This document shows, piece after piece, positions 1 to 19,539 of a stretch of DNA of 21,490 nucleotides. Under the pieces are notes generated by a model. That model saw only the letters and a program-made list of their open reading frames with translations. It did not search any database and was not told where the DNA came from. Numbering within the stretch: the first letter of the stretch is position 1; each line of letters begins with the position of its first letter. The DNA comes from a virus. Taxonomy: Duplodnaviria > Heunggongvirae > Uroviricota > Caudoviricetes. The stretch lies in IMG/VR virus record IMGVR_UViG_2711768030_000006; one strand, given 5' to 3'. A program made the translations under genes and the position numbers.

Positions 1-1284
1 TTACTTCTTCGCCTCTGCAACCACTTTGCTACCCACGCCGCGGTTATTGTATTCCCACATGCGGTTGTAGTTAGTGTCATTCAGATTGCGCTGTATTTCG
101 TCGCTATCGTCAACGCTGCCGGTGTTACCCGCAAACGGACGATTAGAGATCACCGCATCGCCCCACGGTTTAGCCGTGTTAAAACCTTCGTTGATGGCGC
201 TATCACGGATCACCACCTGACCGTTGGTATTGGCATCAACATCCAGCGAGCGGCCCAGTTGTGCCACGCCATCACCGGAAGCATTGAAACGGCTGTTTAC
301 GGCGAGGAAACCGTAGTAAATGTTGGACAGCGTAGCCGGTGCAAACACATACGCTTCTTGCTGAGTACGTGAGTTCACCACGCGGAATTCGGTGTTATCG
401 AACACCACTGCGCCGCGACCAGAAACGATATCCACATCCCCTTCAATGTAGCTGTTGGTCACCAGCGTACGCGGCTGACGATTCGTTTCCAGACGGTTCT
501 GCACACCGCTGTTGGTGACAAAGAAGGTGTTCTGACGACCGAGAATGTTAACGTTGTTAATCTGTACCTGGTCACCGTCAGTACGCAGTGCCACCGCCGG
601 ATGGTTACCTGCATCTACGCTATCGCCCAGCGTGTTTTCGATGGTCAGGTTTTGCAGTTGCAGGCCATTGTTTTGTGACCAGAAGACCGCAGAACAGAGA
701 ACACCGATACTGTCGCTGCGTTTGCTCTGGCAGCTATCGTACATATACCACGCTGGTTTACCTGGCATATATTTGCCGCGCGGGTTGACGTCGTGACGCC
801 AGTCGGCAGGGCTCATGCCCCCATCAAGGGAAAGCCCAATCTTCACATCAATCGGTTTTTCACCTGTACCGTACAGAGTAATTCCACCTGGAGCAGCAGG
901 GACATACACCGTTCCCTGATACTCACCAGGCATCACGGCAATATACTGGCGCTTGTTGGTGCGCTTGATAATTGCCGCATCTACCGCCGCCTGAATCGTG
1001 GTATGCGTTACACCTTGAGTACCCGCCGGGCCGACAACAAAGTCAGGTTGCGCAGGCAGGGTTATCGGGGACGGATTCCACGCTGCAGCACCTGGTGTCA
1101 GGGATGCAAAATAGTGTTGAGCATCGAAATTCTGCGCTTCTTTTGCCGACAGAATCGGGCGAGAAGAGGTACCAGGCGCAGTTTGATCAGAAGGACGTTG
1201 ATCGGGTGGTGTTGAGCTACAGGCGGTCAGCGTCACGCCAAAAGCCAATGCCAGCGCCAGACGGGAAACTGAAAATGTGTTCAC
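1..1284 (-). CDS. ybhC: YbhC-family outer-membrane lipoprotein (pectinesterase-like, putative acyl-CoA thioesterase); host gene flanking the lambda attachment site
   Basis: Complete 427-aa minus-strand ORF (GTG start at 1284, stop at 1-3); N-terminal lipoprotein signal with LTAC lipobox; recognised as the E. coli gene adjacent to attB(lambda). Confidence 0.85.
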   Translation of the reverse strand: MNTFSVSRLALALAFGVTLTACSSTPPDQRPSDQTAPGTSSRPILSAKEAQNFDAQHYFASLTPGAAAWNPSPITLPAQPDFVVGPAGTQGVTHTTIQAAVDAAIIKRTNKRQYIAVMPGEYQGTVYVPAAPGGITLYGTGEKPIDVKIGLSLDGGMSPADWRHDVNPRGKYMPGKPAWYMYDSCQSKRSDSIGVLCSAVFWSQNNGLQLQNLTIENTLGDSVDAGNHPAVALRTDGDQVQINNVNILGRQNTFFVTNSGVQNRLETNRQPRTLVTNSYIEGDVDIVSGRGAVVFDNTEFRVVNSRTQQEAYVFAPATLSNIYYGFLAVNSRFNASGDGVAQLGRSLDVDANTNGQVVIRDSAINEGFNTAKPWGDAVISNRPFAGNTGSVDDSDEIQRNLNDTNYNRMWEYNNRGVGSKVVAEAKK

Positions 1285-1330: not shown

Positions 1331-1418
1331 GCTTTTTTATACTAAGTTGGCATTATAAAAAAGCATTGCTTATCAATTTGTTGCAACGAACAGGTCACTA
1401 TCAGTCAAAATAAAATCA
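1331..1418. other. attL: lambda-type 15-bp core GCTTTTTTATACTAA (1331-1345) followed by phage P' arm
   Basis: Exact lambda att core sequence at 1331-1345, followed by the remembered P' arm sequence (CATTATAAAAAAGCATTGCTTATCAATTTGTTGCAACGAACAGGTCACTATCAGTCAAAATAAAATCATTATTTG) running into the int stop. Confidence 0.9.
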
Positions 1419-2423
1419 TTATTTGATTTCAATTTTGTCCCACTCCCTGCCTCTGTCATCACGATACTGTGATGCCATGGTGTCCGACTTATGCCCGAGA
1501 AGATGTTGAGCAAACTTATCGCTTATCTGCTTCTCATAGAGTCTTGCAGACAAACTGCGCAACTCGTGAAAGGTAGGCGGATCCCCTTCGAAGGAAAGAC
1601 CTGATGCTTTTCGTGCGCGCATAAAATACATCTCTTTGCATTTATCAAGTGTTTCCTTCATTGATATCCCGAGAGCATCAACATGCAATGCTGTTGGGAT
1701 GGCAATTTTTACGCCTGTTTTGCGTTGCTCGACATAAAGATATCCATCTACGATATCAGACCACTTCATTTCGCATAAATCACCAACTCGCTGCCCGGTA
1801 ACAACAGCCAGTTCCATTGCAAGTCTAAGCCAACATGGTGATGATTCTGCTGCTTGATAAATTTTCAGGTATTCGTCAGCCGTAAGTCTTGATCTCCTTA
1901 CCTCTGATTTTGCAGCGCGAGTGGCTGCGACCGGGTTTGTTGTTATATGGCCTTCAGCTATAGCCTCTCGGAATGCATCGCTCAGTGTTGATCTGATTAA
2001 CTTGGCTGATGCCGCCTTGCCCTCGTCTATGTATCCATTGAGCATTGCCGCAATTTCTTTTGTGGTGATGTCTTCAAGTGGAGCATCAGGCAGACCCCTC
2101 CTTATTGCTTTAATTTTGCTCATGTAATTTATGAGTGTCTTCTGCTTGATTCCTCTGCTGGCCAGGATTTTTTCGTAGCGATCAAGCCATGAATGTAACG
2201 TAACGGAATTATCACTGTTGATTCTCGCTGTCAGAGGCTTGTGTTTGTGTCCTGAAAATAACTCAATGTTGGCCTGTATAGCTTCAGTGATTGCGATTCG
2301 CCTGTCTCGGCCTAATCCAAACTCTTTACCCGTCCTTGGGTCCCTGTAGCAGTAATATCCATTGTTTCTTATATAAAGGTTAGGGGGTAAATCCCGGCGC
2401 TCATGACTTCGCCTTCTTCCCAT
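1419..2423 (-). CDS. int: Lambda-type tyrosine integrase, 334 aa (apparent 22-aa internal deletion versus 356-aa lambda Int)
   Basis: N-terminus MGRRRSHERRDLPPNLYIRNNGYYCYRDPRTGKEF and C-terminus LLGHKSDTMASQYRDDRGREWDKIEIK match lambda Int; junction KCKE-M-YFMRARK where lambda is remembered to have KCKE-ILGGETIIASTRREPLSSGTVSR-YFMRARK. Confidence 0.9.
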   Translation of the reverse strand: MGRRRSHERRDLPPNLYIRNNGYYCYRDPRTGKEFGLGRDRRIAITEAIQANIELFSGHKHKPLTARINSDNSVTLHSWLDRYEKILASRGIKQKTLINYMSKIKAIRRGLPDAPLEDITTKEIAAMLNGYIDEGKAASAKLIRSTLSDAFREAIAEGHITTNPVAATRAAKSEVRRSRLTADEYLKIYQAAESSPCWLRLAMELAVVTGQRVGDLCEMKWSDIVDGYLYVEQRKTGVKIAIPTALHVDALGISMKETLDKCKEMYFMRARKASGLSFEGDPPTFHELRSLSARLYEKQISDKFAQHLLGHKSDTMASQYRDDRGREWDKIEIK

Positions 2424-2619
2424 TTCTGATCCTCTTCAAAAGGCTACCTGTTACTGGTCGATTTAAGTCAACCTTTACCGCTGATTCGTGGAACAGATAC
2501 TCTCTTCCATCCTTAACCGGAGGAGGGAATATCCTGCACTCGCGTACCCATCGACGAACTGTTTCAAGGCTTCTTGGGCGTCGCTGGCGTGCGTTCCACT
2601 CCTGAAGTGTCAAGTACAT
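2401..2619 (-). CDS. xis: Excisionase Xis (72 aa)
   Basis: MYLTLQEWNARQRRPRSLETVRRWVRECRIFPPPVKDGREYLFHESAVKVDLNRP matches lambda Xis; overlaps int start by 23 nt as in lambda; GGAG Shine-Dalgarno upstream. Confidence 0.93.
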   Translation of the reverse strand: MYLTLQEWNARQRRPRSLETVRRWVRECRIFPPPVKDGREYLFHESAVKVDLNRPVTGSLLKRIRNGKKAKS

Positions 2620-2640
2620 CGCAAAGTCTCCGCAATTACA

Positions 2641-2666
2641 CGCAAGAAAAAACCGCCATCAGGCGG
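2641..2666 (-). terminator. Intrinsic terminator-like hairpin on minus strand between orf55 and xis
   Basis: Stem ccgcc (2653-2657) / ggcgg (2662-2666), 4-nt loop, followed on the minus strand by UUUUUUCUU (plus-strand A-run 2644-2652). Confidence 0.5.
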
Positions 2667-2826
2667 CTTGGTGTTCTTTCAGTTCTTCAATTCGAATATT
2701 GGTTACGTCTGCATGTGCTATCTGCGCCCACAGCATCCAGTGGTCATAGCAGTCGCTGATGTTCTCGGCTTCGATAACTCTGTTGAATGGTTCTCCATTC
2801 CATTCACCTGTGACTCGGAAGTGCAT
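2659..2826 (-). CDS. Lambda 55-aa hypothetical protein (orf55-like)
   Basis: 55-codon ORF (MHFRVTGEWNGEPFNRVIEAENISDCYDHWMLWAQIAHADVTNIRIEELKEHQAA) found by hand translation, not in the 60-aa-threshold ORF track; same spacing from xis as the 55-aa lambda ORF. Confidence 0.7.
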   Translation of the reverse strand: MHFRVTGEWNGEPFNRVIEAENISDCYDHWMLWAQIAHADVTNIRIEELKEHQAA

Positions 2827-2865
2827 TTATCATCTCCATAAAACAAAACCCGCCGTAGCGAGTTC

Positions 2866-2896
2866 AGATAAAAGAAATCCTCGTCAGTGCGAGGAT
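2866..2896 (-). terminator. Terminator-like hairpin on minus strand at left edge of the AT-rich island
   Basis: 7-bp stem atcctcg (2877-2883) / cgaggat (2890-2896), 6-nt loop, followed on the minus strand by UUUCUUUUAUCU. Confidence 0.35.
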
Positions 2897-3068
2897 GCTG
2901 TTCATTGCTGCTATACACTTTTTTGCTCTCAACGTAAGCGGTAGCCCATTCTGTTGGGTTGGTGCAGTTGCTTTTAGGAAATGCTATTTACCCCTTAAAT
3001 GTCGGCTGAAAGAGCTAAAATCCATGCAAAAAATTTACGCAATTTTGTGTATTATTGTGCAGTAAGTA

Positions 3069-3671
3069 ATGAGCTATTTTCTGCGCAAAAAATGGATGGT
3101 AAATTTGTCCGGGTCAGGAAAAATTTTATGGGCGCTAAACATGAAAAAAGATTCGTATCCTTATTTGATTTGCATGACAGTTTCAGGGCTGATCTTTATT
3201 TTCCTTTTCTTCTGGTGGCGGGCAGATATCTACAGGGTCACGTTTCTTAATCAGAGTATATCCCACTATTACATTCTGTTTAGCATGGGAATAGCTTTTC
3301 TGTTATCTCTGTTTTGGGTTAAGAAGGGGATAGTAAAACAAAGCGGCTGGAAGAGTCTGTCAGCATACCTTAAGGTTTATGCAGGGATGTGCATATTTGC
3401 TGGATTTTTTCTGATTATACCCCTTACGACACTAACTTATTTTTTGCCTGGAGAGACATCGTCTTATGTTGCACCGTATCGGTATACTTCCGGTAGTTCA
3501 AAAAGTTGTTCTGGAGCTGAGGTGGATGACCCCGATCTACATGAGAATATTCGCATTTGCTATCCGTATGGCAATTATGAGTACGATAATATTATCTATG
3601 TTGAAAAGAAAATTAATATATTAGGTGCGGTAGTGACATATGCACAGACCGCGCGTGATGATACTGAATGA
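3069..3671 (+). CDS. Hypothetical integral membrane protein (3 predicted TM helices plus about 70-aa Cys/Tyr-rich C-terminal domain); start uncertain (ATG at 3069, 3096 or 3141)
   Basis: 200-codon ORF in strongly AT-rich DNA (about 35% GC in sampled lines); hydrophobic segments LICMTVSGLIFIFLFFWW, YYILFSMGIAFLLSLFWV, VYAGMCIFAGFFLIIPLTTLTYFL; opposite strand to the surrounding pL operon; no recognisable lambda counterpart. Confidence 0.6.
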   Translation: MSYFLRKKWMVNLSGSGKILWALNMKKDSYPYLICMTVSGLIFIFLFFWWRADIYRVTFLNQSISHYYILFSMGIAFLLSLFWVKKGIVKQSGWKSLSAYLKVYAGMCIFAGFFLIIPLTTLTYFLPGETSSYVAPYRYTSGSSKSCSGAEVDDPDLHENIRICYPYGNYEYDNIIYVEKKINILGAVVTYAQTARDDTE

Positions 3672-3705
3672 TATAGTATATAGCGGGCAAGTTTTAGTTA
3701 ATTTA

Positions 3706-3729
3706 TCGAGGTAATATAATTTACCTCGA
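3706..3729 (+). terminator. Hairpin downstream of the membrane-protein gene (candidate terminator)
   Basis: Perfect 9-bp inverted repeat tcgaggtaa / ttacctcga with 6-nt loop, 35 nt after the stop, followed by moderately T-rich sequence. Confidence 0.35.
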
Positions 3730-3881
3730 CTCGTTTGTTCTGGTATTAATATTTCGCTTTACGACCGATTTTTATCTGATGATATCATGCGGTTTTCATA
3801 TACTGACTTACTGTCTTTTCTCCGTTAGCGATTTTCTCCTGCTCAGCGATGATTTTATCTTTGGCTTCTAGTTAATTTCGC

Positions 3882-4103
3882 TCACTTCGAACCTCTCTGT
3901 TTACTGATAAGCTCCAGATCTTGCTGGCAACTGGCACAAGTCCGACAACCCTGAACGGCCAGTCGTCTTCGTTCATCTATCGGATCGCCACACTCACAAC
4001 AATGAGTGGCAGATATAGCCTGGTGGTTCAGGCGGCGCATTTTTATTGCTGTGTTGCGCTGTAATTCTTCAATTTCTGATGCTGAATCAATTATGTCTGC
4101 CAT
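3882..4103 (-). CDS. TraR/DksA-family C4-type zinc-finger protein (73 aa; lambda Orf73-like)
   Basis: CxxC...CxxC motif (CCECGDPIDERRRLAVQGCRTCASC) and 73-aa length typical of the TraR family; sits in the pL operon. Confidence 0.75.
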   Translation of the reverse strand: MADIIDSASEIEELQRNTAIKMRRLNHQAISATHCCECGDPIDERRRLAVQGCRTCASCQQDLELISKQRGSK

Positions 4104-4163
4104 CTTTCATTAATCCCTGAATTGTTGGTTAATACGCTTGAGGGTGAATGCGAATAATAAAAA

Positions 4164-4178
4164 AGGAGCCTGTAGCTC
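4164..4178 (-). terminator. Weak terminator-like hairpin on minus strand
   Basis: 5-bp GC stem ggagc / gctcc with 5-nt loop followed on the minus strand by UUUUUUAUU. Confidence 0.25.
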
Positions 4179-4201
4179 CCTGATGATTTTACTTTTCATG
4201 T

Positions 4202-4417
4202 TCACCGTTCCTTAAAGACGCCGTTCAACATGCCGATCGCCAGGCTTAAATGAGTCGGTGTGAATCCCATCAGCGTTACCGTTTCGCGGTGCTTCTTTAG
4301 TACGCTACGGCAAATGTCATCGACGTTTTTATCCGGAAACTGCTGTCTGGCTTTTTTGATTTCAGAATTAGCCTGACGGGCAATGCTGCGAAGGGCGTTT
4401 TCTTGCTGAGGTGTCAT
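4202..4417 (-). CDS. Hypothetical small protein (71 aa from ATG 4417; in-frame ATG at 4483 would give 93 aa)
   Basis: ORF MTPQQENALRSIARQANSEIKKARQQFPDKNVDDICRSVLKK...; ATG at 4415-4417 overlaps the stop of the upstream micro-ORF (ATGA). Confidence 0.5.
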   Translation of the reverse strand: MTPQQENALRSIARQANSEIKKARQQFPDKNVDDICRSVLKKHRETVTLMGFTPTHLSLAIGMLNGVFKER

Positions 4418-4497
4418 TGAACAAGCCCCATGTCGGCAAGCATAAGCACACAGAATATGAAGCCCGCTGCCAGAAAAATGCATTCAGTGGTTGTCAT
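4414..4497 (-). CDS. Candidate 27-aa hydrophobic micro-ORF (MTTTECIFLAAGFIFCVLMLADMGLVQ)
   Basis: Start overlaps orf63 stop (ATGA at 4494-4497) and stop overlaps the next ATG (ATGA at 4414-4417); a single TM-like hydrophobic stretch. Confidence 0.3.
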   Translation of the reverse strand: MTTTECIFLAAGFIFCVLMLADMGLVQ

Positions 4498-4685
4498 ACC
4501 TGGTCTCTCTCATCTGCTTCTGCTTTCGCCACCATCATTTCCAGCTTTTGTGAAAGGGATGCGGCTAACGTATGAAATTCTTCGTCTGTTTCTACTGGTA
4601 TTGGCACAAACCTGACTCCAATTTGAGCGAGGCTATGTGCCATCTCGATACTCGTTCTTAACTCAACGGGAGATGCTTTGTGCAT
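4494..4685 (-). CDS. Lambda Orf63-like protein (63 aa)
   Basis: 63-aa ORF at the lambda-equivalent position, overlapping orf60a by 28 nt as in lambda. Confidence 0.8.
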   Translation of the reverse strand: MHKASPVELRTSIEMAHSLAQIGVRFVPIPVETDEEFHTLAASLSQKLEMMVAKAEADERDQV

Positions 4686-4840
4686 ACAGCTCCCCGTTTA
4701 TTATTTATCTCCTCAGCCAGCCGCTGTGCTTTCAGGGGATTTCTGATAACAGAAAGGCCGGGAAATACCCAGCCTCGCTTTGTAATGGAGTAGACGAAAG
4801 TGATCGCGCCTACCCGGATATTATCGTGAGGATGCGTCAT
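4658..4840 (-). CDS. Lambda Orf60a-like protein (60 aa)
   Basis: 60-aa ORF from an ATG that overlaps the exo stop (ATGA at 4837-4840). Confidence 0.75.
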
Positions 4841-5517
4841 CGCCATTGCTCCCCAAATACAAAACCAATTTCAGCCAGTGCCTCGTCCATTTTTTCGATG
4901 AACTCCGGCACCATCTCGTCAAAACTCGCCATGTAATTTTCATCCCGCTCAACCACGACATAATGCAGGCCTTCACGCTTCATTCGTGGGTCATAGTTGG
5001 CAAAGTACCAGGCATCTTTTCGCGTCACCCACATGCTGTACTGCACCTGGGCCATGTAAGCCGACTTTATGGCCTCGAAACCACCGAGCCGGAATTTCAT
5101 GAAATCCCGGGAGGTAAACGGGCATTTCAGTTCAAGGCCGTTACCGTCACTGCATAAACCATCGGGAGAGCAGGCGGTGCGCATACTTTCGTCGCGATAG
5201 ATGATCGGGGATTCAGTAACATTCACGCCGGAAGTAAACTCAAACAGGGCTCTGGCGTCGTTCTCGTACTGTTTTCCCCAGGCCAGCGCCTTAGCATTAA
5301 CTTCCGGAGCCACACCGGTGCAAACCTCAGCCAGCAGGGTGTGGAAGTAGGACATTTTCATGTCAGGCCACTTCTTTCCTGAGCGGGGCTTTGCTATCAC
5401 GTTGTGAACTTCTGAAGCGGTGATGACGCCGAGCCGTAATTTGTGCCATGCATCATCCCCCTGTTCGACAGCTCTCACGTCGATCCCGGTATGCTGCAGG
5501 ATAATGTCCGGTGTCAT
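4837..5517 (-). CDS. exo: Lambda exonuclease (Red-alpha), 226 aa
   Basis: Full-length match to lambda Exo ([50 protein letters not shown]...); ATGA overlap with bet. Confidence 0.95.
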
Positions 5518-6299
5518 GCTGCCACCTTCTGCTCAGTGGCTTTCTGTTTCAGGAATCCAAGAGCTTTCACTGCTTCGGCCTGTGTCAGTTCTGACGATGC
5601 GCGAATGTCGCGGCGAAATATCTGGGAACAGAGCGGCAATAAGTCGTCATCCCATGTTTTATCCAGGGCGATCAGCAGAGTGTTAATCTCCTGCATGGTT
5701 TCATCGTTAACCGGAGTGATGTCGCGTTCTGGCTGACGTTCTGCAGTGTATGCAGTATTTTCGACAATGCGCTCGGCTTCATCCTTGTCATAGATACCAG
5801 CAAATCCGAAGGCCAGACGGGCACACTGAATCATGGCTTTATGCCGTAACATCCGTTTGGGATGCGACTGCCACGGCCCCGTGATTTCTCTGCCTTCGCG
5901 GGTTTTGAATGGTTCGCGGCGGCATTCATCCATCCATTCGGTAACGCAGATCGGATGATTACGGTCCTTGCGGTAAATCCGGCATGTACAGGATTCATTG
6001 TCCTGCTCAAAGTCCATGCCATCAAACTGCTGGTTTTCATTGATGATGCGGGACCAGCCATCAACGCCCACCACCGGAACGATGCCATTCTGCTTATCAG
6101 GAAAGGCGTAAATTTCTTTCGTCCATGGATTAAGGCCGTACTGGTTGGCAACGATCAGTAATGCGATGAACTGCGCATCGCTGGCATCACCTTTAAATGC
6201 CGTCTGGCGAAGAGTGGTGATCAGTTCCTGTGGGTCGACAGAATCCATGCCGACACGTTCAGCCAGCTTCCCAGCCAGCGTTGCGAGTGCTGTACTCAT
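5514..6299 (-). CDS. bet: Bet (Red-beta) single-strand annealing protein, 261 aa
   Basis: Full-length match to lambda Bet ([48 protein letters not shown]...). Confidence 0.95.
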
Positions 6300-6304
6300 C
6301 CGTT

Positions 6305-6721
6305 TTATACCTCTGAATCAATATCAACCTGGTGGTGAGCAATGGTTTCAACCATGTACCGGATGTGTTCTGCCATGCGCTCCTGAAACCCAACATCGTC
6401 ATCAAACGCACGGGTAATGGCTTTTTTGCTGGCCCCGCAGCGTTGTAAATGATCGATGCAGAGCGATTCAAACAAATGCTGGGGCAGGCCTTTTTCCATG
6501 TCGTCTGCCAGTTCTGCCTCTTTCTCTTCACGGGCGATCTGCTGGTAGTGACGTGCCCAGCTCTGAGCCTCAAGACGATCCTGAATGTAATAAGCGTTCA
6601 TGGCTGAACTCCTGAAATAGCTATGAAAATATCGCCCGCGAAATGCCGGGCTGATTAGGAAAACAGGAAAGAGGGTTAGTGAATGCTTTTGCTTGATCTC
6701 AGTTTCAGTATTAATATCCAT
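6305..6721 (-). CDS. gam: Gam, RecBCD inhibitor, 138 aa
   Basis: Matches lambda Gam ([61 protein letters not shown]...). Confidence 0.93.
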
Positions 6722-6819
6722 TTTTTATAAGCGTCGACGGCCTCACGAAACATCTTTTCATCGCCAATAAAAGTGGCGATAGTGAATTTAGTCTGGATAG
6801 CCATAAGTGTTTGATCCAT
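6676..6819 (-). CDS. kil: Kil host-killing / FtsZ-inhibitor peptide, 47 aa
   Basis: [47 protein letters not shown]; overlaps the gam start as in lambda. Confidence 0.85.
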
Positions 6820-6952
6820 TTTTTGGGACTCCTGGCTGATTAAGTATGTCGATAAGGCGTTTCCATCCGTCACGTAATTTACGGGTGATTCGTTCAAGTA
6901 AAGATTCGGAAGGGCAGCCAGCAACAGGCCACCCTGCAATGGCATATTGCAT
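6788..6952 (-). CDS. cIII: cIII, FtsH inhibitor that stabilises cII, 54 aa
   Basis: [54 protein letters not shown]. Confidence 0.9.
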   Translation of the reverse strand: MQYAIAGWPVAGCPSESLLERITRKLRDGWKRLIDILNQPGVPKNGSNTYGYPD

Positions 6953-7024
6953 GGTGTGCTCCTTATTTATACATAACGAAAAACGCCTCGAGTGAAGCGT
7001 TATTGGTATGCGGTAAAACCGCAC

Positions 7025-7393
7025 TCAGGCGGCCTTGATAGTCATATCATCTGAATCAAATATTCCTGATGTATCGATATCGGTAATTCTTATTCCTTCG
7101 CTACCATCCATTGGAGGCCATCCTTCCTGACCATTTCCATCATTCCAGTCGAACTCGCACACAACACCATATGCATTTAAGTCGCTTGAAATTGCTATAA
7201 GCAGAGCATGTTGCGCCAGCATGATTAATACAGCATTTAATACAGAGCCGTGTTTATTGAGTCGGTATTCAGAGTCTGACCAGAAATTATTAATCTGGTG
7301 AAGTTTTTCCTCTGTCATTACGTCATGATCGATTTCAATTTCTATTGATGCTTTCCAGTCGTAATCAATGATGTATTTTTTGATGTTTGACAT
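7025..7393 (-). CDS. ea10: Ea10 protein, 122 aa
   Basis: 122-aa ORF at the lambda-equivalent position downstream of cIII. Confidence 0.8.
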   Translation of the reverse strand: MSNIKKYIIDYDWKASIEIEIDHDVMTEEKLHQINNFWSDSEYRLNKHGSVLNAVLIMLAQHALLIAISSDLNAYGVVCEFDWNDGNGQEGWPPMDGSEGIRITDIDTSGIFDSDDMTIKAA

Positions 7394-7412
7394 CTATTCA
7401 TATCCTCATAGA

Positions 7413-7439
7413 TAAAAAATCGCCCTCACACTGGAGGGC
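7413..7439 (-). terminator. Terminator-like hairpin on minus strand between ral and ea10
   Basis: Stem gccctc (7422-7427) / gagggc (7434-7439), 6-nt loop, followed on the minus strand by GAUUUUUUAUC. Confidence 0.4.
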
Positions 7440-7575
7440 AAAGAAGATTTCCAATAATCAGAACAAGTCGGCTCCTGTTTAGTTACGAGCGACATTGCTC
7501 CGTGTATTCACTCGTTGGAATGAATACACAGTGCAGTGTTTATTCTGTTATTTATGCAAAAAATAAAGGCCACTA

Positions 7576-7776
7576 TCAGGCAGCTTTGTTGTTCTGTTTA
7601 CCAAGTTCTCTGGCAATCATTGCCGTCGTTCGTATTGCCCATTTATCGACATATTTCCCATCTTCCATTACAGGAAACATTTCTTCAGGCTTAACCATGC
7701 ATTCCGATTGCAGCTTGCATCCATTGCATCGCTTGAATTGTCCACACCATTGATTTTTATCAATAGTCGTAGTCAT
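7576..7776 (-). CDS. ral: Ral restriction-alleviation protein, 66 aa
   Basis: MTTTIDKNQWCGQFKRCNGCKLQSECMVKPEEMFPVMEDGKYVDKWAIRTTAMIARELGKQNNKAA. Confidence 0.9.
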   Translation of the reverse strand: MTTTIDKNQWCGQFKRCNGCKLQSECMVKPEEMFPVMEDGKYVDKWAIRTTAMIARELGKQNNKAA

Positions 7777-7846
7777 ACGGATAGTCCTGGTATTGTTCCA
7801 TCACATCCTGAGGATGCTCTTCGAACTCTTCAAATTCTTCTTCCAT
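7760..7846 (-). CDS. Lambda orf28-like 28-aa acidic peptide
   Basis: Hand-translated MEEEFEEFEEHPQDVMEQYQDYPYDYDY; overlaps the ral start as in lambda; below the ORF-track length threshold. Confidence 0.6.
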   Translation of the reverse strand: MEEEFEEFEEHPQDVMEQYQDYPYDYDY

Positions 7847-7973
7847 GTATCACCTTAAATAGTGGATTGCGGTAGTAAAGATTGTGCCTGTCTTTTAACC
7901 ACATCAGGCTCGGTGGTTCTCGTGTACCCCTACAGCGAGAAATCGGATAAACTATTACAACCCCTACAGTTTG

Positions 7974-8525
7974 ATGAGTATAGAAATGGATCCACTCGTT
8001 ATTCTCGGACGAGTGTTCAGTAATGAACCTCTGGAGAGAACCATGTATATGATCGTTATCTGGGTTGGACTTCTGCTTTTAAGCCCAGATAACTGGCCTG
8101 AATATGTTAATGAGAGAATCGGTATTCCTCATGTGTGGCATGTTTTCGTCTTTGCTCTTGCATTTTCGCTAGCAATTAATGTGCATCGATTATCAGCTAT
8201 TGCCAGCGCCAGATATAAGCGATTTAAGCTAAGAAAACGCATTAAGATGCAAAACGATAAAGTGCGATCAGTAATTCAAAACCTTACAGAAGAGCAATCT
8301 ATGGTTTTGTGCGCAGCCCTTAATGAAGGCAGGAAGTATGTGGTTACATCAAAACAATTCCCATACATTAGTGAGTTGATTGAGCTTGGTGTGTTGAACA
8401 AAACTTTTTCCCGATGGAACGGGAAGCATATATTATTCCCTATTGAGGATATTTACTGGACTGAATTAGTTGCCAGCTATGATCCATATAATATTGAGAT
8501 AAAGCCAAGGCCAATATCTAAGTAA
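7974..8525 (+). CDS. sieB: SieB superinfection-exclusion protein B (membrane protein); ATG at 7974, possible TTG at 7971
   Basis: ORF with hydrophobic N-terminal half (MYMIVIWVGLLLLS..., HVFVFALAFSLAI) at the lambda sieB position, converging on N. Confidence 0.8.
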   Translation: MSIEMDPLVILGRVFSNEPLERTMYMIVIWVGLLLLSPDNWPEYVNERIGIPHVWHVFVFALAFSLAINVHRLSAIASARYKRFKLRKRIKMQNDKVRSVIQNLTEEQSMVLCAALNEGRKYVVTSKQFPYISELIELGVLNKTFSRWNGKHILFPIEDIYWTELVASYDPYNIEIKPRPISK

Positions 8526-8849
8526 CTAGGTAAGAGGAATCGATTTTCCCTTAATTTTCTGGCGTCCACTGCATGTTATGCCGCGTTCGCCAGGCTTGCT
8601 GTACCATGTGCGCTGATTCTTGCGCTCAATACGTTGCAGGTTGCTTTCAATCTGTTCGTGGTATTCAGCCAGCACCGTAAGGTCTATCGGATTCAGTGCG
8701 CTTTCTACTCGTGATTTCGGTTTGCGATTCAGCGAGAGAATAGGGCGGTTAACTGGTTTTGCGCTTACCCCAACCAACAGGGGATTTGCTGCTTTCCATT
8801 GAGCCTGTTTCTCTGCGCGACGTTCGCGGCGGCGTGTTTGTGCATCCAT
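8526..8849 (-). CDS. N: N antitermination protein, 107 aa
   Basis: MDAQTRRRERRAEKQAQWKAANPLLVGVSAKPVNRPILSLNRKPKSRVESALNPIDLTVLAEYHEQIESNLQRIERKNQRTWYSKPGERGITCSGRQKIKGKSIPL matches lambda N; arginine-rich N-terminal motif. Confidence 0.93.
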   Translation of the reverse strand: MDAQTRRRERRAEKQAQWKAANPLLVGVSAKPVNRPILSLNRKPKSRVESALNPIDLTVLAEYHEQIESNLQRIERKNQRTWYSKPGERGITCSGRQKIKGKSIPLT

Positions 8850-8995
8850 CTGGATTCTCTTGTCAGTTAGCTTTGGTGGTGTGTGTGAGTCGTAGTCCTG
8901 AACGAAAACACCCCACGATTGGCTCATTTGCAGCTAATCCGGATTCGCACTTCCGGCCAATGCTTCGTTTCGTATCACACACCCCAAAGCCTTCT

Positions 8996-9040
8996 GCTTT
9001 GAATGCTGCCCTTCTTCAGGGCTTAATTTTTAAGAGCATC
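8996..9040 (-). promoter_or_regulatory. nutL (boxA plus boxB GCCCTGAAGAAGGGC on minus strand)
   Basis: Reverse complement of 9008-9022 is GCCCTGAAGAAGGGC, the lambda nutL boxB hairpin; boxA-like TGCTCTTA on minus strand just upstream. Confidence 0.8.
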
Positions 9041-9083
9041 ACCTTCAATGGTGGTCAGTGCGTCCTGCTGATGGCTTAAAATT

Positions 9084-9151
9084 ACAAGAAAGATTGTATG
9101 TTGTAAACAAGAAATATTGTAAAAAGGGACATGAAAAACAAACTCCATTGT
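9084..9151 (-). promoter_or_regulatory. OL operators and pL of phage-434 type
   Basis: Three 14-bp ACAA-N6-TTGT operator-like sites: acaagaaagattgt (9084-9097), acaagaaatattgt (9107-9120), acaaactccattgt (9138-9151). Confidence 0.7.
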
Positions 9152-9201
9152 TTTTAAACGGAAAATAGTTTGTTTTTTGGTTATCGAGATTGAGGTGGGG
9201 A

Positions 9202-10556
<1,355 letters not shown>

Positions 10557-10564
10557 GACATTCC

Positions 10565-10596
10565 CGCTCTTACACATCCCAGCCCTGAAAAAGGGC
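10565..10596 (+). promoter_or_regulatory. nutR (boxA CGCTCTTAC, boxB GCCCTGAAAAAGGGC)
   Basis: boxA at 10565-10573 and boxB hairpin at 10582-10596, identical to the lambda nutR motifs. Confidence 0.85.
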
Positions 10597-10620
10597 ATCA
10601 AATTAAACCACACCTATGGT

Positions 10621-10640
10621 GTATGCATTTATTTGCATAC
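10621..10640 (+). promoter_or_regulatory. tR1 region hairpin (gtatgca / tgcatac)
   Basis: 7-bp inverted repeat between nutR and cII, as in the lambda cro-cII interval. Confidence 0.4.
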
Positions 10641-10675
10641 ATTCAATCAATTGTTATCTAAGGAAATACTTACAT

Positions 10676-10969
10676 ATGGTTCGTGCAAACAAACGCAACG
10701 AGGCTCTACGAATCGAGAGTGCGTTGCTTAACAAAATCGCAATGCTTGGAACTGAGAAGACAGCGGAAGCTGTGGGCGTTGATAAGTCGCAGATCAGCAG
10801 GTGGAAGAGGGACTGGATTCCAAAGTTCTCAATGCTGCTTGCTGTTCTTGAATGGGGTGTCGTTGACGACGACATGGCTCGATTGGCACGACAAGTTGCT
10901 TCGATTCTCACCAATAAAAAACGCCCGGCGGCAACCGAGCGTTCTGAACAAATCCAGATGGAATTCTGA
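10676..10969 (+). CDS. cII: CII transcriptional activator, 97 aa
   Basis: MVRANKRNEALRIESALLNKIAMLGTEKTAEAVGVDKSQISRWKRDWIPKFSMLLAVLEWGVVDDDMARLARQVA matches lambda CII; AAGGAAAT Shine-Dalgarno. Confidence 0.93.
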   Translation: MVRANKRNEALRIESALLNKIAMLGTEKTAEAVGVDKSQISRWKRDWIPKFSMLLAVLEWGVVDDDMARLARQVASILTNKKRPAATERSEQIQMEF

Positions 10970-11001
10970 GGTCATTACTGGATCTATCAACAGGAGTCAT
11001 T

Positions 11002-11901
11002 ATGACAAATACAGCAAAAATACTCAACTTCGGCCGAGGTAACTTTGCCGGACAGGAGCGTAATGTGGCAGATCTCGATGATGGTTACGCCAGACTATCA
11101 AATATGCTGCTTGAGGCTTATTCAGGCGCAGATCTGACCAAGCGACAGTTTAAAGTGCTGCTTGCCATTCTGCGTAAAACCTATGGGTGGAATAAACCAA
11201 TGGACAGAATCACCGATTCTCAACTTAGCGAGATTACAAAGTTACCTGTCAAACGGTGCAATGAAGCCAAGTTAGAACTCGTCAGAATGAATATTATCAA
11301 GCAGCAAGGCGGCATGTTTGGACCAAATAAAAACATCTCAGAATGGTGTATCCCTCAAAACGAGGGAAAATCCCCTAAAACGAGGGATAAAACATCCCTC
11401 AAATTGGGGGATTGCTATCCCTCAAAACAGGGGGACACAAAAGACACTATTACAAAAGAAAAAAGAAAAGATTATTCGTTCGAGAATTCTGGCGAATCCT
11501 CTGACCAGCCAGAAAATGATCTTTCTGTGGTTAAACCGGATGCTGCAATTCAGAGCGGCAGCAAGTGGGGGACAGCAGAAGACCTGACCGCCGCAGAGTG
11601 GATGTTTGACATGGTGAAGACTATCGCACCATCAGCCAGAAAACCGAATTTTGCTGGGTGGGCTAACGATATCCGTCTGATGCGTGAACGTGACGGACGT
11701 AACCATCGCGACATGTGTGTACTGTTCCGCTGGGCATGCCAGGACAACTTCTGGTCCGGTAACGTGCTTAGCCCGGCCAAACTCCGCGACAAGTGGACCC
11801 AGCTCGAAATCAACCGTAACAAGCAACAGGCAGTCGTGACAGCCAGCAAACCAAAACTGGACCTGACAAACACAGACTGGATTTACGGGGTGGATCTATG
11901 A
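11002..11901 (+). CDS. O: O replication initiator, 299 aa
   Basis: Full-length match to lambda O (MTNTAKILNFGRGNFAGQERNVADLDDGYARLSNMLLEAYSGADLTKRQFKVLLAILRKTYGWNKPMDRITDSQL...). Confidence 0.95.
   Translation: MTNTAKILNFGRGNFAGQERNVADLDDGYARLSNMLLEAYSGADLTKRQFKVLLAILRKTYGWNKPMDRITDSQLSEITKLPVKRCNEAKLELVRMNIIKQQGGMFGPNKNISEWCIPQNEGKSPKTRDKTSLKLGDCYPSKQGDTKDTITKEKRKDYSFENSGESSDQPENDLSVVKPDAAIQSGSKWGTAEDLTAAEWMFDMVKTIAPSARKPNFAGWANDIRLMRERDGRNHRDMCVLFRWACQDNFWSGNVLSPAKLRDKWTQLEINRNKQQAVVTASKPKLDLTNTDWIYGVDL
11350..11475 (+). repeat. ori-lambda: four 18-19-bp iterons plus adjacent AT-rich unwinding region inside O
   Basis: Iterons tatccctcaaaacgaggga (11350-11368), tcccctaaaacgagggat (11371-11388), atccctcaaattggggga (11394-11411), tatccctcaaaacaggggga (11416-11435), then A-rich tract aagacactattacaaaagaaaaaagaaaag. 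Confidence 0.9.
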
Positions 11902-12599
11902 AAAACATCGCCGCACAGATGGTTAACTTTGACCGTGAGCAGATGCGTCGGATCGCCAACAACATGCCGGAACAGTACGACGAAAAGCCGCAGGTACAGC
12001 AGGTAGCGCAGATCATCAACGGTGTGTTCAGCCAGTTACTGGCAACTTTCCCGGCGAGCCTGGCTAACCGTGACCAGAACGAAGTGAACGAAATCCGTCG
12101 CCAGTGGGTTCTGGCTTTTCGGGAAAACGGGATCACCACGATGGAACAGGTTAACGCAGGAATGCGCGTAGCCCGTCGGCAGAATCGACCATTTCTGCCA
12201 TCACCCGGGCAGTTTGTTGCATGGTGCCGGGAAGAAGCATCCGTTACCGCCGGACTGCCAAACGTCAGCGAGCTGGTTGATATGGTTTACGAGTATTGCC
12301 GGAAGCGAGGCCTGTATCCGGATGCGGAGTCTTATCCGTGGAAATCAAACGCGCACTACTGGCTGGTTACCAACCTGTATCAGAACATGCGGGCCAATGC
12401 GCTTACTGATGCGGAATTACGCCGTAAGGCCGCAGATGAGCTTGTCCATATGACTGCGAGAATTAACCGTGGTGAGGCGATCCCTGAACCAGTAAAACAA
12501 CTTCCTGTCATGGGCGGTAGACCTCTAAATCGTGCACAGGCTCTGGCGAAGATCGCAGAAATCAAAGCTAAGTTCGGACTGAAAGGAGCAAGTGTATGA
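11898..12599 (+). CDS. P: P replication protein (DnaB helicase loader), 233 aa
   Basis: Full-length match to lambda P; ATGA overlap with O stop. Confidence 0.95.
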   Translation: MKNIAAQMVNFDREQMRRIANNMPEQYDEKPQVQQVAQIINGVFSQLLATFPASLANRDQNEVNEIRRQWVLAFRENGITTMEQVNAGMRVARRQNRPFLPSPGQFVAWCREEASVTAGLPNVSELVDMVYEYCRKRGLYPDAESYPWKSNAHYWLVTNLYQNMRANALTDAELRRKAADELVHMTARINRGEAIPEPVKQLPVMGGRPLNRAQALAKIAEIKAKFGLKGASV

Positions 12600-12886
12600 C
12601 GGGCAAAGAGGCAATTATTCATTACCTGGGGACGCATAATAGCTTCTGTGCGCCGGACGTTGCCGCGCTAACAGGCGCAACAGTAACCAGCATAAATCAG
12701 GCCGCGGCTAAAATGGCACGGGCAGGTCTTCTGGTTATCGAAGGTAAGGTCTGGCGAACGGTGTATTACCGGTTTGCTACCAGGGAAGAACGGGAAGGAA
12801 AGATGAGCACGAACCTGGTTTTTAAGGAGTGTCGCCAGAGTGCCGCGATGAAACGGGTATTGGCGGTATATGGAGTTAAAAGATGA
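12596..12886 (+). CDS. ren: Ren (confers resistance to Rex exclusion), 96 aa
   Basis: MTGKEAIIHYLGTHNSFCAPDVAALTGATVTSINQAAAKMARAGLLVIEGKVWRTVYYRFATREEREGKMSTNLVFKE matches lambda Ren. Confidence 0.9.
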   Translation: MTGKEAIIHYLGTHNSFCAPDVAALTGATVTSINQAAAKMARAGLLVIEGKVWRTVYYRFATREEREGKMSTNLVFKECRQSAAMKRVLAVYGVKR

Positions 12887-12911
12887 CCATCTACATTACT
12901 GAGCTAATAAC

Positions 12912-12943
12912 AGGCCTGCTGGTAATCGCAGGCCTTTTTATTT
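12912..12943 (+). terminator. tR2 intrinsic terminator
   Basis: 8-bp stem aggcctgc (12912-12919) / gcaggcct (12928-12935), then TTTTTATTT. Confidence 0.75.
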
Positions 12944-12959
12944 GGGGGAGAGGGAAGTC

Positions 12960-13400
12960 ATGAAAAAACTAACCTTTGAAATTCGATCTCCAGCACATCA
13001 GCAAAACGCTATTCACGCAGTACAGCAAATCCTTCCAGACCCAACCAAACCAATCGTAGTAACCATTCAGGAACGCAACCGCAGCTTAGACCAAAACAGG
13101 AAGCTATGGGCCTGCTTAGGTGACGTCTCTCGTCAGGTTGAATGGCATGGTCGCTGGCTGGATGCAGAAAGCTGGAAGTGTGTGTTTACCGCAGCATTAA
13201 AGCAGCAGGACGTTGTTCCTAACCTTGCCGGGAATGGCTTTGTGGTAATAGGCCAGTCAACCAGCAGGATGCGTGTAAGCGAATTTGCGGAGTTATTAGA
13301 GCTTATACAGGCATTCGGTACAGAGCGTGGCGTTAAGTGGTCAGACGAAGCGCGACTGGCTCTGGAGTGGAAAGCAAGATGGGGAGACAGGGCGGCATGA
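12960..13400 (+). CDS. ninB: NinB (Orf recombination-mediator family), 146 aa
   Basis: [84 protein letters not shown] matches lambda NinB. Confidence 0.9.
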
Positions 13401-13573
13401 GGCGACAGCGACGAAGTTTCACCGACATCATCTGCGAAAACTGCAAATACCTTCCAACGAAGCGCTCCAGAAATAAACGCAAGCCAATCCCAAAAGAATC
13501 TGACGTAAAAACCTTCAATTACACAGCTCACCTGTGGGATATCCGGTGGCTAAGATATCGTGCGAGGAAATGA
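13397..13573 (+). CDS. NinD-like small basic protein, 58 aa
   Basis: ATG at 13397 overlaps the ninB stop (ATGA); [58 protein letters not shown]; no NinC-sized ORF present. Confidence 0.55.
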
Positions 13574-13917
13574 CAATGGATTATTCACAGTTAAGTGATT
13601 TTGAAATTAACAGAATGGTAGGAGACATAATTTTTAAAGGCCTTTGGGCAAGTAAACCGGAAACATCAGGGAATAACACCAACAAATGGTATTACGGAAA
13701 TGCTGATACAACTTTTGAGCCATTAAATCATTTGCCTGACTACTGCAATGATCCGAGCGCTTCATGGCCGATTATTGAGAAATACAGGATTTCTATCTTA
13801 GACCAGTTAACTGAATGGTGTGTGGATGCAAAAGGCGTAAGCCCAATATTTGATACCAGACCTCTCCGCGCCGCCATGATTGTCTTTCTCCTGATGCAGG
13901 AGGCCAATAATGCTTAG
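13570..13917 (+). CDS. Hypothetical lambdoid nin-region protein (DUF2591 / NinX-like), about 113-115 aa
   Basis: ATG at 13570 overlaps the preceding stop (ATGA); alternative ATG at 13576 has GAGGA at better spacing. Confidence 0.5.
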
Positions 13918-13998
13918 CCCATCTCAATCCCTTCAATACCTGAAAGGAAGCATAGAGCGGGCTTCAATGTGCACAGAGTGGATTCTATCTAGGTTTAG

Positions 13999-14127
13999 CG
14001 CATACAGAAGATTGCCGGTAAAGGGCATGCCAAGCAAGTCGATGCTGCATATGCAAAAGAATGCGCGCTGGAAGGTATGGCGAGAACACAGGTTATCTGG
14101 CTGAAAGAGGGGGTTATTAAGGCGTGA
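13999..14127 (+). pseudogene. Startless ORF fragment (...[37 protein letters not shown]) ending in a GTGA overlap with rusA; possible frameshifted or truncated nin-region gene
   Basis: 43 sense codons with no plausible start codon after the upstream stops at 13990 and 13996; stop TGA 14125-14127 overlaps the rusA GTG; an overlapping 64-aa ORF (13910-14104) in another frame could be its displaced 5' part. Confidence 0.3.
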
Positions 14128-14486
14128 ATACCTACAGCATCACATTACCCTGGCCTCCGAGCAATAATCGCTATTACCGCCATAATCGCGGACGCACGCA
14201 CATCAGCGCAGAGGGGCAGGCATACCGCGATAACGTCGCCCGAATCATTAAAAACGCAATGCTAGATATCGGCCTGGCTATGCCTGTGAAAATCCGCATT
14301 GAGTGCCACATGCCGGATCGCCGTCGCCGTGACCTGGATAATCTGCAAAAAGCCGCTTTTGACGCACTCACTAAAGCAGGTTTCTGGCTGGATGATGCTC
14401 AGGTCGTTGATTACCGCGTTGTGAAGATGCCTGTTACCAAAGGTGGGAGGCTGGAACTGACCATCACCGAAATGGGGAATGAATGA
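14124..14486 (+). CDS. rusA: RusA Holliday-junction resolvase, 120 aa
   Basis: [25 protein letters not shown]...[31 protein letters not shown] matches E. coli/DLP12 RusA; GTG start. Confidence 0.93.
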
Positions 14487-14623
14487 TGTTTGAGTTTAAT
14501 ATGGCAGAACTTCTTCGCCACCGCTGGGGGCGTCTGCGCTTATATCGTTTCCCCGGTTCTGTTTTGACCGATTACCGAATACTGAAGAATTACGCCAAAA
14601 CACTGACAGGAGCAGGAGTATGA
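14483..14623 (+). CDS. ylcG: YlcG-like small protein, 46 aa
   Basis: Hand-translated [46 protein letters not shown]; overlaps the rusA stop; sits between rusA and Q as in DLP12. Confidence 0.6.
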
Positions 14624-14708
14624 AGTCAGAGATAACAATCAACTAATACTGTTTTGTTGATTTTTGCTTGTAATTGGCGTTCTGGTCTGAGTTTTGTGGA
14701 GTAAGTTG

Positions 14709-15086
14709 ATGCGTGATATTCAGATGGTTCTTGAGCGTTGGGGAGCGTGGGCGGCTAATAATCATGAAGATGTGACCTGGTCGTCCATTGCCGCCGGTTT
14801 TAAGGGATTAATTCCTTCAAAAGTAAAATCTCGCCCACAATGTTGTGACGATGACGCGATGATCATTTGCGGGTGCATGGCCCGTCTGAAAAAGAACAAC
14901 AGCGATTTGCATGATTTATTGGTGGACTATTATGTCGGCGGCATGACTTTTATGGCGCTTGCACGTAAGCATGGGCGATCTGATTGTTGGGTTGGCAGGA
15001 TGCTTCAGAAAGCTGAGGGCGTAGTGGAGGGTATGCTGATGGTGTTGGATCTCCGATTGGAGATGGATGCTGATTGTTCGAAATAA
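14709..15086 (+). CDS. Late-gene antiterminator Q, short phage-82/DLP12 QuuD type, 125 aa
   Basis: Cys-rich zinc-binding-like motif ([16 protein letters not shown]); GGAG Shine-Dalgarno 7 nt before ATG; position immediately upstream of a terminator and the late region. Confidence 0.75.
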
Positions 15087-15184
15087 TTAAAGGAAAAGTT
15101 GCTGTCTGATTGTCATTAGTCTAACATTTTAAATGTTGGAATCGCAACGTAGTTATTATCATATAACAGCTTGTTTCCTGATTT
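15087..15184 (+). promoter_or_regulatory. Candidate late promoter pR' and Q-utilisation region
   Basis: AT-rich interval between Q stop and the tR'-like terminator; the hexamers could not be placed reliably. Confidence 0.35.
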
Positions 15185-15213
15185 AGCCAGCCTCCCCAAA
15201 GGCTGGTTTTTTT
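15185..15213 (+). terminator. tR'-like intrinsic terminator
   Basis: Stem ccagcct (15187-15193) / aggctgg (15200-15206) followed by TTTTTTT. Confidence 0.8.
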
Positions 15214-15241
15214 CTAATAAGTATTATTTCGGGTAGGGATT

Positions 15242-15766
15242 TTATTGTTTAACCCATAATAATTCATTGACATTGAATCCCAACTTTTGAGCGGTTCGCA
15301 CATAGTCTGCTTTTACTTTATCTGGAATAGTTGGGGTCCTTGCCAGAATCCATAGGTATTCTCTGTTCGGACCACTGACAAGAGCATACTTATACTCATC
15401 ATCCAGTTTGATTACATTATAGCCACCATAGAAGGGGCCAAAAAACGAAACCTTCAATGCTGCAGTTTTAGTATCTCCAGTAAAGTATGCTTTACCTTCG
15501 CTCTCGCTCCATTTATTTTTCGTTGGATCGTATCCACGGTTAAGTACACGAATCCCTCCGTCGTTCCGTTTTCCATAAGTAGCGCTGACCTGTTCCAGAC
15601 CACGTTCGAACCGGTTCTCGAGGCGAGCTATTTCATACCATTTTCCGAGGTAGCGGTTGGCGTCAAAATTTGTAATCGGCTGCACACCTTTAGGTGGTGT
15701 CGGGGCCTTACATGCTATAAGAGTGAAAGAGAGTGCAATGCCAGTCAACACAGGCCATAACTTCAT
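15242..15766 (-). CDS. Blc-like bacterial lipocalin, outer-membrane lipoprotein, 174 aa
   Basis: Lipoprotein signal with LIAC lipobox; lipocalin motifs NFDANRYLGKWYEIARLENRFERG and FTGDTKTAALKVSFFGPFYGGYNVIKLD closely resemble E. coli Blc; AGGA Shine-Dalgarno. Confidence 0.85.
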   Translation of the reverse strand: MKLWPVLTGIALSFTLIACKAPTPPKGVQPITNFDANRYLGKWYEIARLENRFERGLEQVSATYGKRNDGGIRVLNRGYDPTKNKWSESEGKAYFTGDTKTAALKVSFFGPFYGGYNVIKLDDEYKYALVSGPNREYLWILARTPTIPDKVKADYVRTAQKLGFNVNELLWVKQ

Positions 15767-15958
15767 AATAAATCCTGTACTTTTGATAGTTGAGAGTAAG
15801 TATGAAAGATAGATGATTACGACCGATCACTTAAAGAACTTTCATACTATATTAGGAATAGTCCATAACAGAAAAATTGTCAGTGATGACGCCAGAAAGG
15901 CAATTTATTCCGTGCACTACACAGTTTATGTGTTAATGAATTAGTCAAGGGGGAGAAT

Positions 15959-16918
15959 ATGATAAAAAAACCTGTGATTGGAATCAGCGGTTGTTTGGCC
16001 GGTTCTGCTGTTCGTTTTGATGGTGGTCACAAAAGAGCTGACTTTTTAATGGACAAATTAGTGGAATGGGTAACATTCAGACCAGTATGTCCGGAAATGG
16101 CTATAGGGCTGCCAGTTCCGCGTCCTGCTCTACGTCTTGTGCGCTCGACGCAAGGAAATATACGGATGTGTTTCAGCCACGACCAGAATGAGGATGTGAC
16201 AGAGAGAATGACAGAGTTTAGTCGTTCTTATATGGACAAATTAAAGGATGTATCGGGGTTTGTGGTTTGTGCTAAATCTCCCAGCTGTGGCATGGAGCGC
16301 GTGCGTGTCTATGATGAAAATGGTAATCGAGGTCGTAAAGATGGAGTGGGACTATTTACGAGCACTTTGATGGAAAAGTTTTCCTGGCTACCGGTTGAAG
16401 AGGATGGGCGATTACATGATCCAGTGCTTCGTGAGAATTTTGTTGAAAGAGTTTTTGCTTTGCATGAGCTCAATCACCTTTACAAGGAGAAATTATCAAG
16501 AAGAGAGTTATTAGCTTTTCATAGTCGTTATAAGCTTCAGTTGTTGGCGCATAGTCAGGCAGGCTATAAAGATATGGGACCATTTGTGGCTGCAATACAC
16601 GAGTGGGCGGACCTTGAATCATACTTTGAGGTGTATCGTGATAAGCTGATGGCGATTCTCAGAAAACCTGCATCACGTAAAAATCACACGAATGTGCTGA
16701 TGCATATACAGGGGTATTTTAGTAACTACTTAAGTACACGCCAGCGTAAAGAGTTGAGCGAGGTTATACTTAACTATCGTTCTGGCACATTACCTCTTCT
16801 TGCGCCGTTGACTCTGCTGAAGCATTATCTGGGTGAGTATCCTAATGATTACTTGCTTACACAGAATTACTTCGATCCCTATCCGGACGAACTGGCTCTA
16901 AGACTGATGGTAAATTAA
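15959..16918 (+). CDS. DUF523 (TudS-like, cysteine-rich putative Fe-S) fused to DUF1722 (YbgA-like) protein, 319 aa
   Basis: N-terminal half has Cys spacing GISGCLAG...PVCPE...CAKSPSCG typical of DUF523; C-terminal half resembles YbgA-type DUF1722; GGGGGAG Shine-Dalgarno. Confidence 0.7.
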   Translation: MIKKPVIGISGCLAGSAVRFDGGHKRADFLMDKLVEWVTFRPVCPEMAIGLPVPRPALRLVRSTQGNIRMCFSHDQNEDVTERMTEFSRSYMDKLKDVSGFVVCAKSPSCGMERVRVYDENGNRGRKDGVGLFTSTLMEKFSWLPVEEDGRLHDPVLRENFVERVFALHELNHLYKEKLSRRELLAFHSRYKLQLLAHSQAGYKDMGPFVAAIHEWADLESYFEVYRDKLMAILRKPASRKNHTNVLMHIQGYFSNYLSTRQRKELSEVILNYRSGTLPLLAPLTLLKHYLGEYPNDYLLTQNYFDPYPDELALRLMVN

Positions 16919-17269
16919 TTGTATGCGATATCATCCAAAAGGATGAGTTCCTGCATGCAGGATATTTACAATCGTAAAAACTACACTATGATACCCAGAG
17001 TGTCAGTTTGTATAAAAACTCTGTTTACGCTGAAGAAACAATTGAGATGCAACTTAAAGTTGGTAAACATGCCAGTCAAAATATATAATATTATGATTCC
17101 ACGCAGCTATATATAATATAACGGATTGGTTTAATAATTTGTCTTTGTGAGTTAAATACATAATTTTATACTTGTGATGCAATGAAATTTTCCTTATTGT
17201 TGAACTGGCGAATATTGATTTTCCACCTATACTTACCTGGTGTAACCCCAATGATATCAGGTGGATAAT

Positions 17270-18001: not shown

Positions 18002-18062
18002 CGTGATGCGTTTTAATGATTTTGTAATTTTCGTATTTGATAATTGTATGATGCTTTCAGCT

Positions 18063-18095
18063 ACGCCAGAATAATCGCGGCGTTTTTCTTTTTGA
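18063..18095 (+). terminator. Weak terminator-like hairpin after the AraC-family gene
   Basis: Short stem acgcc / ggcgt followed by TTTTTCTTTTT. Confidence 0.25.
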
Positions 18096-18188
18096 ATAGA
18101 TGTTCAAGCCTTACGCTAATGTAACTTCTATACCTTTCCTCTTCGTTCCGAACCGTGTACACCATCCGTTATTTGCGGAGGTGAGGCT

Positions 18189-19365: not shown

Positions 19366-19539
19366 TAGCGATAATTTTACTCATCATCCTTCACATCTGG
19401 CTCTGTAGACAGGGTGGTGCTCACTTCTGGAGTGAATCCAGATTAAACATCTCATTGCTGATGCTTGATATTGAGCATTTTGCGCGCGGTAAGGGGCTGC
19501 GTTGAGATAAGAGCCAGTCATTACACATACCAGGATTTA

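Follow-up and report, generated by a model that had tools for sequence, protein, structure and literature searches.

Gene organization at the attachment site

The stretch of DNA analyzed here (the window, 21,490 nucleotides) begins with the host gene ybhC, the chromosomal sequence that borders lambda attB toward gal, and continues through attL into phage DNA (Table 1). The attL core carried the bacterial B-arm on its left and the phage P' arm on its right, and in the alignment with lambda attP, identity began at the core and was 100% through the P' arm. A lambda-type int gene and an intact xis gene, which overlaps the start of int, followed. Beyond xis, the window contained the lambdoid early, replication, nin, Q, and lysis regions, with Nu1 at its end. 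The lambda attL core and P' arm, together with the bacterial left flank and the lambda-like Xis, establish that the prophage is lambda-like and that it is integrated at the canonical lambda attachment site adjoining ybhC. The overlapping xis gene, the attL core with its P' arm, and the position next to ybhC are all features shared with lambda.

Table 1. Features of the attL end of the prophage, its host flank, and the accessory genes
Feature	Position in window	Strand	Basis
ybhC, host gene, 427-aa pectinesterase-like lipoprotein	1..1284	-	ORF; ybhC annotation in the matching region of E. coli 181.1
attL 15-bp common core, GCTTTTTTATACTAA	1331..1345	+	Alignment with lambda attP; same 15 bp as the lambda misc_recomb feature
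attL P' arm, overlapping the 3' end of int	1346..1461	+	1346-1425 100% identical to lambda
Arm-type binding region ("int 4")	1421..1461		Coordinate offset only, from lambda feature 27814-27854
int, lambda-type, 334 aa, without Int residues 266-287, I265M	1419..2423	-	ORF, alignments, Pfam
Deletion junction, 66 bp missing	between 1629 and 1630	-	DNA comparison; 66 bp present in all relatives
xis, excisionase, 72 aa, intact	2401..2619	-	ORF; 71 of 72 residues as in lambda Xis (G59S)
200-aa ORF	3069..3671	+	ORF
Lipocalin-family, YbgA-family, and helix-turn-helix genes	about 15140-17900		Offset from 15407-18166 of the strain 181.1 region

An in-frame deletion of 66 bp in int

A reading of the letters without database searches (the sequence-only reading) had described the 334-aa ORF as collinear with lambda Int save for one in-frame gap of 22 residues, and alignment with lambda Int confirmed this description. 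When the window protein was aligned with the solved lambda Int chains 5j0n, 1z1g, and 1z1b, its residues 1 to 265 corresponded to Int residues 1 to 265 and its residues 266 to 334 to Int residues 288 to 356. In the direct alignment with lambda Int (NC_001416), KCKE-ILGGETIIASTRREPLSSGTVSR-YFMRARK of lambda corresponded to KCKE-M-YFMRARK of the window protein, a net loss of 22 aa that shortens the protein from 356 to 334 residues; the lambda Int sequence that the sequence-only reading had used for its comparison agreed exactly with the NC_001416 translation. At the DNA level, exactly 66 bp were gone. The missing coding-strand sequence was TCTTGGCGGAGAAACCATAATTGCATCTACTCGTCGTGAACCGCTTTCATCCGGCACAGTATCAAG, and the junction falls within a codon, between AT and G, changing I265 to M.

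The gap had been placed between K235 and the H308-x-x-R311 motif, and the alignment located it there. All six catalytic residues, which had been read as preserved, were found in the alignment: lambda R212, K235, H308, R311, H333, and Y342 correspond to residues 212, 235, 286, 289, 311, and 320 of the window protein, and all six were invariant in the homologue alignment. Outside the deletion, the window protein was 99% identical to lambda Int (UniProt P03700; PDB 1AE9, 1P7D, 1Z1G, and 5J0N) over all aligned residues, and the only remaining differences were H164P, S234R, and I248V, all of which are common to the full-length allele of E. coli strain 181.1. The S234R substitution, an arginine for a serine just before the catalytic K235, was present in the strain 181.1 copy and absent from lambda and from phage ev099; it is probably a tolerated polymorphism.

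None of the usual marks of a pseudogene (frameshift, stop, or truncation) was found in int: the reading frame runs uninterrupted between the start and stop codons of lambda int, and the length of the deletion is divisible by three. The gene did bear marks of decay, namely, the loss of a segment conserved in the family and an allele without spread.

Distribution of the allele

The window was identical to contig CXWO01000004.1 of a draft E. coli assembly (GCA_001268645.1) over all 12,423 bases compared, and this identity to a deposited contig ruled out an artificially altered window. By coordinates, the contig continues for approximately 147 bp beyond the window and stops at the Nu1/terminase junction. 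The break in the draft assembly thus falls in the late region of the prophage, and attR and the remaining prophage lie on other contigs. The literature contained no publication found to deal with this assembly or its protein accession.

The exact protein, RefSeq WP_053273917.1, occurred on one contig only among approximately 15 billion proteins. Junction-spanning queries (a 44-mer and a 32-mer) were run against complete E. coli genomes (5,426), phage records (50,697), GTDB species representatives (185,579), and the collections of metagenome and viral contigs, and none of them gave a match. The extra 66 bp were present in all of the best 60 E. coli matches and all of the best 30 phage matches to the int-xis region. 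A survey for the same deletion in other strains had been suggested along with the first description of the gap; since it returned zero matches in any collection and the protein is confined to a single contig, the allele is a singleton, private to that contig.

In RefSeq, the shortened protein bears the name "phage integrase Arm DNA-binding domain-containing protein," and full-length alleles bear the name "tyrosine-type recombinase/integrase." Evidently, WP_053273917.1 no longer passes as a complete recombinase in the annotation pipeline. Automated annotation quietly downgrades such integrases, without a flag for a probably immobile prophage.

Two other genomes each carried a single-contig, in-frame variant of a lambda-type Int. 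One of these variants (P0019; 295 aa) is without residues 214 to 274, including K235, and the other (P0016; 377 aa) has a 21-aa tandem duplication (EVRRSRLTADEYLKIYQAAES). The window allele resembles both in being a private, single-contig structural variant of int in which the frame stays open, but its end points are different and the three are separate events. In-frame lesions thus appear sporadically in int, a gene sequenced thousands of times.

Recent origin of the deletion

The closest complete genome was that of E. coli 181.1 (turkey), in which this prophage occupies the identical site and has an int gene for 356 aa. Positions 1630 to 21490 of the window showed no mismatch to strain 181.1 in 19,861 bp, and positions 1208 to 1629 were identical as well; all 29 mismatches lay in positions 1 to 1207, within ybhC. 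Across approximately 20.3 kb of phage DNA, the 66-bp gap was the sole difference. The full-length allele of strain 181.1 (WP_064680891.1; NZ_CP059907.1, positions 4185490 to 4186560) and its surroundings were accordingly 100% identical in DNA over int, xis, and 19.9 kb, save for the 66 bp, whereas the host flank ybhC was 2.4% different (29 of 1,207 positions). The copies in strain 181.1 and phage ev099 both encode a normal Int of 356 aa, in contrast to the 334 aa of the window copy. Either the same phage lysogenized two lineages recently, or a recombination boundary lies inside ybhC.

Because the prophage is otherwise identical to the strain 181.1 copy with its full-length int, the deletion must, as judged from this comparison, be very recent. 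Furthermore, Int is needed for integration, and the deletion presumably postdates the integration of this prophage copy for that reason.

The lost segment in the catalytic fold

The segment missing from the window protein was present in all 46 aligned full-length homologues, which had lengths of 347 to 362 aa and identities down to 45%; its presence in every one of them ruled out the 66 bp being an insertion in the relatives. In the homologue alignment, the segment showed the conserved pattern of a hydrophobic strand (ETIIAS-like), after which a helix begins. The catalytic domain profile PF00589 matched the full-length allele in one stretch, covering model positions 2 to 168 (136.4 bits), whereas the match of the window protein was broken into two stretches, the first of which ended at model position 86 of 172 (103.5 bits), and a complete, contiguous PF00589 domain was not found in it. 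The arm-binding domain PF09003 matched residues 1 to 69 with a score (113.1 bits) equal to that of the full-length allele, and the N-terminal arm-binding sequence was identical to that of PDB entries 1kjk and 2wcc. The core-binding profiles PF22022 and PF02899 were above their cut-offs, with scores unchanged relative to the full-length protein. Judged as a lambda-type heterobivalent tyrosine integrase, the window protein therefore shares with lambda Int its arm-binding, core-binding, and catalytic domains and the six catalytic residues, and it differs in the absence of residues 266 to 287, in I265M, in the three polymorphisms, and in the interrupted PF00589 match.

The lost segment is part of the catalytic fold that is conserved among tyrosine recombinases. 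In the AlphaFold2 model of the full-length protein, a helix at residues 255 to 265 was followed by a short strand at residues approximately 270 to 279 and a helix at residues 282 to 295. From this model, the deletion is predicted to remove the connecting region of loop and short beta-strand, along with the initial six residues of the second helix, so that the two helices are joined directly.

In 1995, Dorgai, Yagil, and Weisberg reportedly showed that five residues (N99, S282, G283, R287, and E319) set the difference in core-site specificity between lambda and HK022. A sequence comparison of the Int proteins of lambda and HK022 showed differences at residues 99, 282, 283, 287, and 319, exactly these five positions. 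Three of these five residues, S282, G283, and R287, which we take to be specificity determinants, fall in the deleted segment, which would place the segment at the protein-DNA interface. A review likewise attributes the lambda/HK022 specificity difference to five residues, which are left unnamed there; a search for literature naming S282, G283, and R287 as determinants yielded only this five-residue statement and a reference to Dorgai et al. 1995.

Structure predictions

AlphaFold2 models were built for the full-length protein and the variant from the same homologue set, with the window protein added as the first row for the variant. The pLDDT of the catalytic domain, a confidence not validated as a measure of deletion effects, was 87 to 97 for the full-length protein and fell in the variant to 70, 51, and 64 around the junction and to <50 at residues 276 to 284 and around the tyrosine nucleophile region. 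Superposed on the lambda Int catalytic core (1AE9), the full-length prediction had a TM-score of 0.96 to 0.99 and an rmsd of 1.3 to 2.6 Å, compared with 0.71 to 0.73 and 6.6 to 7.0 Å for the variant prediction. The core-binding domain superposed at 0.6 to 0.7 Å in both models, with the variant at 0.7 Å on 2oxo. The models, which are predictions, agree in direction with the conservation data.

Mechanism of the deletion

Replication slippage was argued against by the end points of the deletion: no direct repeats of at least 6 nt were found near them in the parental sequence, and the junction had zero microhomology. A 7-nt inverted repeat, CTTGATA/TATCAAG, starts at one breakpoint and was rejected as an explanation, given a chance expectation of approximately 0.65 such pairs for 146 nt. 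The deletion most likely originated from illegitimate end joining. The in-frame outcome, with a prior of one in three, needs no special explanation.

Predicted consequence and alternative explanations

We consider it quite probable that the window contains a recent, private loss-of-function deletion of int in an otherwise lambda-like prophage that has lost the ability to excise. The phage would have entered its host with a full-length Int, and after integration, a repeat-free, illegitimate deletion of 66 bp would have removed Int residues 266 to 287. The catalytic domain would then probably fail to fold or to dock on core DNA, so that strand cleavage and exchange would be lost, and the variant would probably still bind arm sites and perhaps, through its core-binding domain, core sites. 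As judged from the conservation of the segment and the structure models, Int activity is likely lost and the prophage likely excision defective. Lambda excision is carried out by Int with Xis and IHF. In the window, attL and xis are intact, but without an active Int, which is required together with Xis and IHF, no excision of the prophage would be expected after induction. It would still derepress, replicate in place, and lyse its host, and little or no viable phage would be expected, since packaging of the lambda type requires a concatemer with two cos sites.

Such a prophage would resemble the classical int-defective prophages of lambda and other decaying or grounded prophages, which are integrated, with att sites and Xis intact and the integrase damaged. 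Int-defective lambda prophages do not excise efficiently on induction. Unlike the classical examples, which are laboratory amber or missense mutants, the window allele comes from a natural isolate and is an internal deletion that preserves the frame.

It is unlikely that the isolate has a full-length int and that the 66-bp gap was produced during draft assembly, scaffolding, or gap closure. The allele does rest on one draft short-read assembly, the contig break just past the window in the late region is typical of such assemblies, and the remainder of the 20.3 kb is the same as in the prophage of strain 181.1. A collapse, however, needs repeats at both end points, which lacked any of at least 6 nt as well as microhomology; the region is a single-copy, high-complexity coding sequence; and the one-off in-frame indels P0019 and P0016, which come from independent data sets, indicate that such mutations do occur. 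A mobile prophage, in which Int without residues 266 to 287 keeps useful recombinase activity and the lost strand and helix start are dispensable, appears decidedly improbable. By its sequence alone, an in-frame variant with all catalytic residues could retain residual activity, and the predicted catalytic domain is still recognizable, although distorted. Against this, the segment occurs in every homologue down to 45% identity within a tight range of lengths, it corresponds to core match positions of PF00589, the crystal fold is reproduced by the full-length control but not by the variant model, which deviates from it strongly, and the variant is a singleton that has not spread.

The preserved DNA-binding domains could also be read as a sign of selected domestication, in which a stable Int without residues 266 to 287 would bind arm and core sites without exchange and would be kept because it stabilizes the prophage to the host's advantage, by dominant-negative action or by anchoring, or because it blocks superinfecting lambda-type phages at attB/attP. 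An integrase would in that case have been turned into a site-occupying regulator. This reading is very improbable: the intact PF09003 and PF22022/PF02899 matches, with scores as in the full-length protein, and the preserved frame fit it, but one-third of random deletions are in frame, the singleton allele shows no sign of spread or fixation, the zero divergence of the surrounding prophage leaves no time for selection, and the window contains no second copy of int with which the variant could interfere.

If int has indeed lost its function, the prophage captures the first step in prophage grounding in a clean and datable form, with a single integrase lesion in an otherwise pristine prophage. 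It is at the same time an ordinary case of early prophage decay in a thoroughly known gene, of little import beyond one isolate, and no general conclusion about prophage biology follows from an allele seen once, in one draft assembly. Were the isolate available, this natural in-frame deletion would offer a probe of how far the catalytic domain of Int tolerates the loss of a strand and of a helix start that carries core-specificity residues.

Accessory genes in the window

Opposite the leftward early operon, between an ea8.5-like ORF and a gene for a TraR/DksA-type zinc-finger protein, the window contains a 200-aa ORF (Table 1) with several hydrophobic stretches. It had no Pfam match, is annotated as hypothetical in strain 181.1, and is a possible moron. 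In addition, the interval from Q to the lysis genes includes lipocalin-family (minus strand), YbgA-family, and helix-turn-helix genes, a cargo that is known only through the strain 181.1 annotation and that occupies a position where morons are frequent in lambdoid phages.
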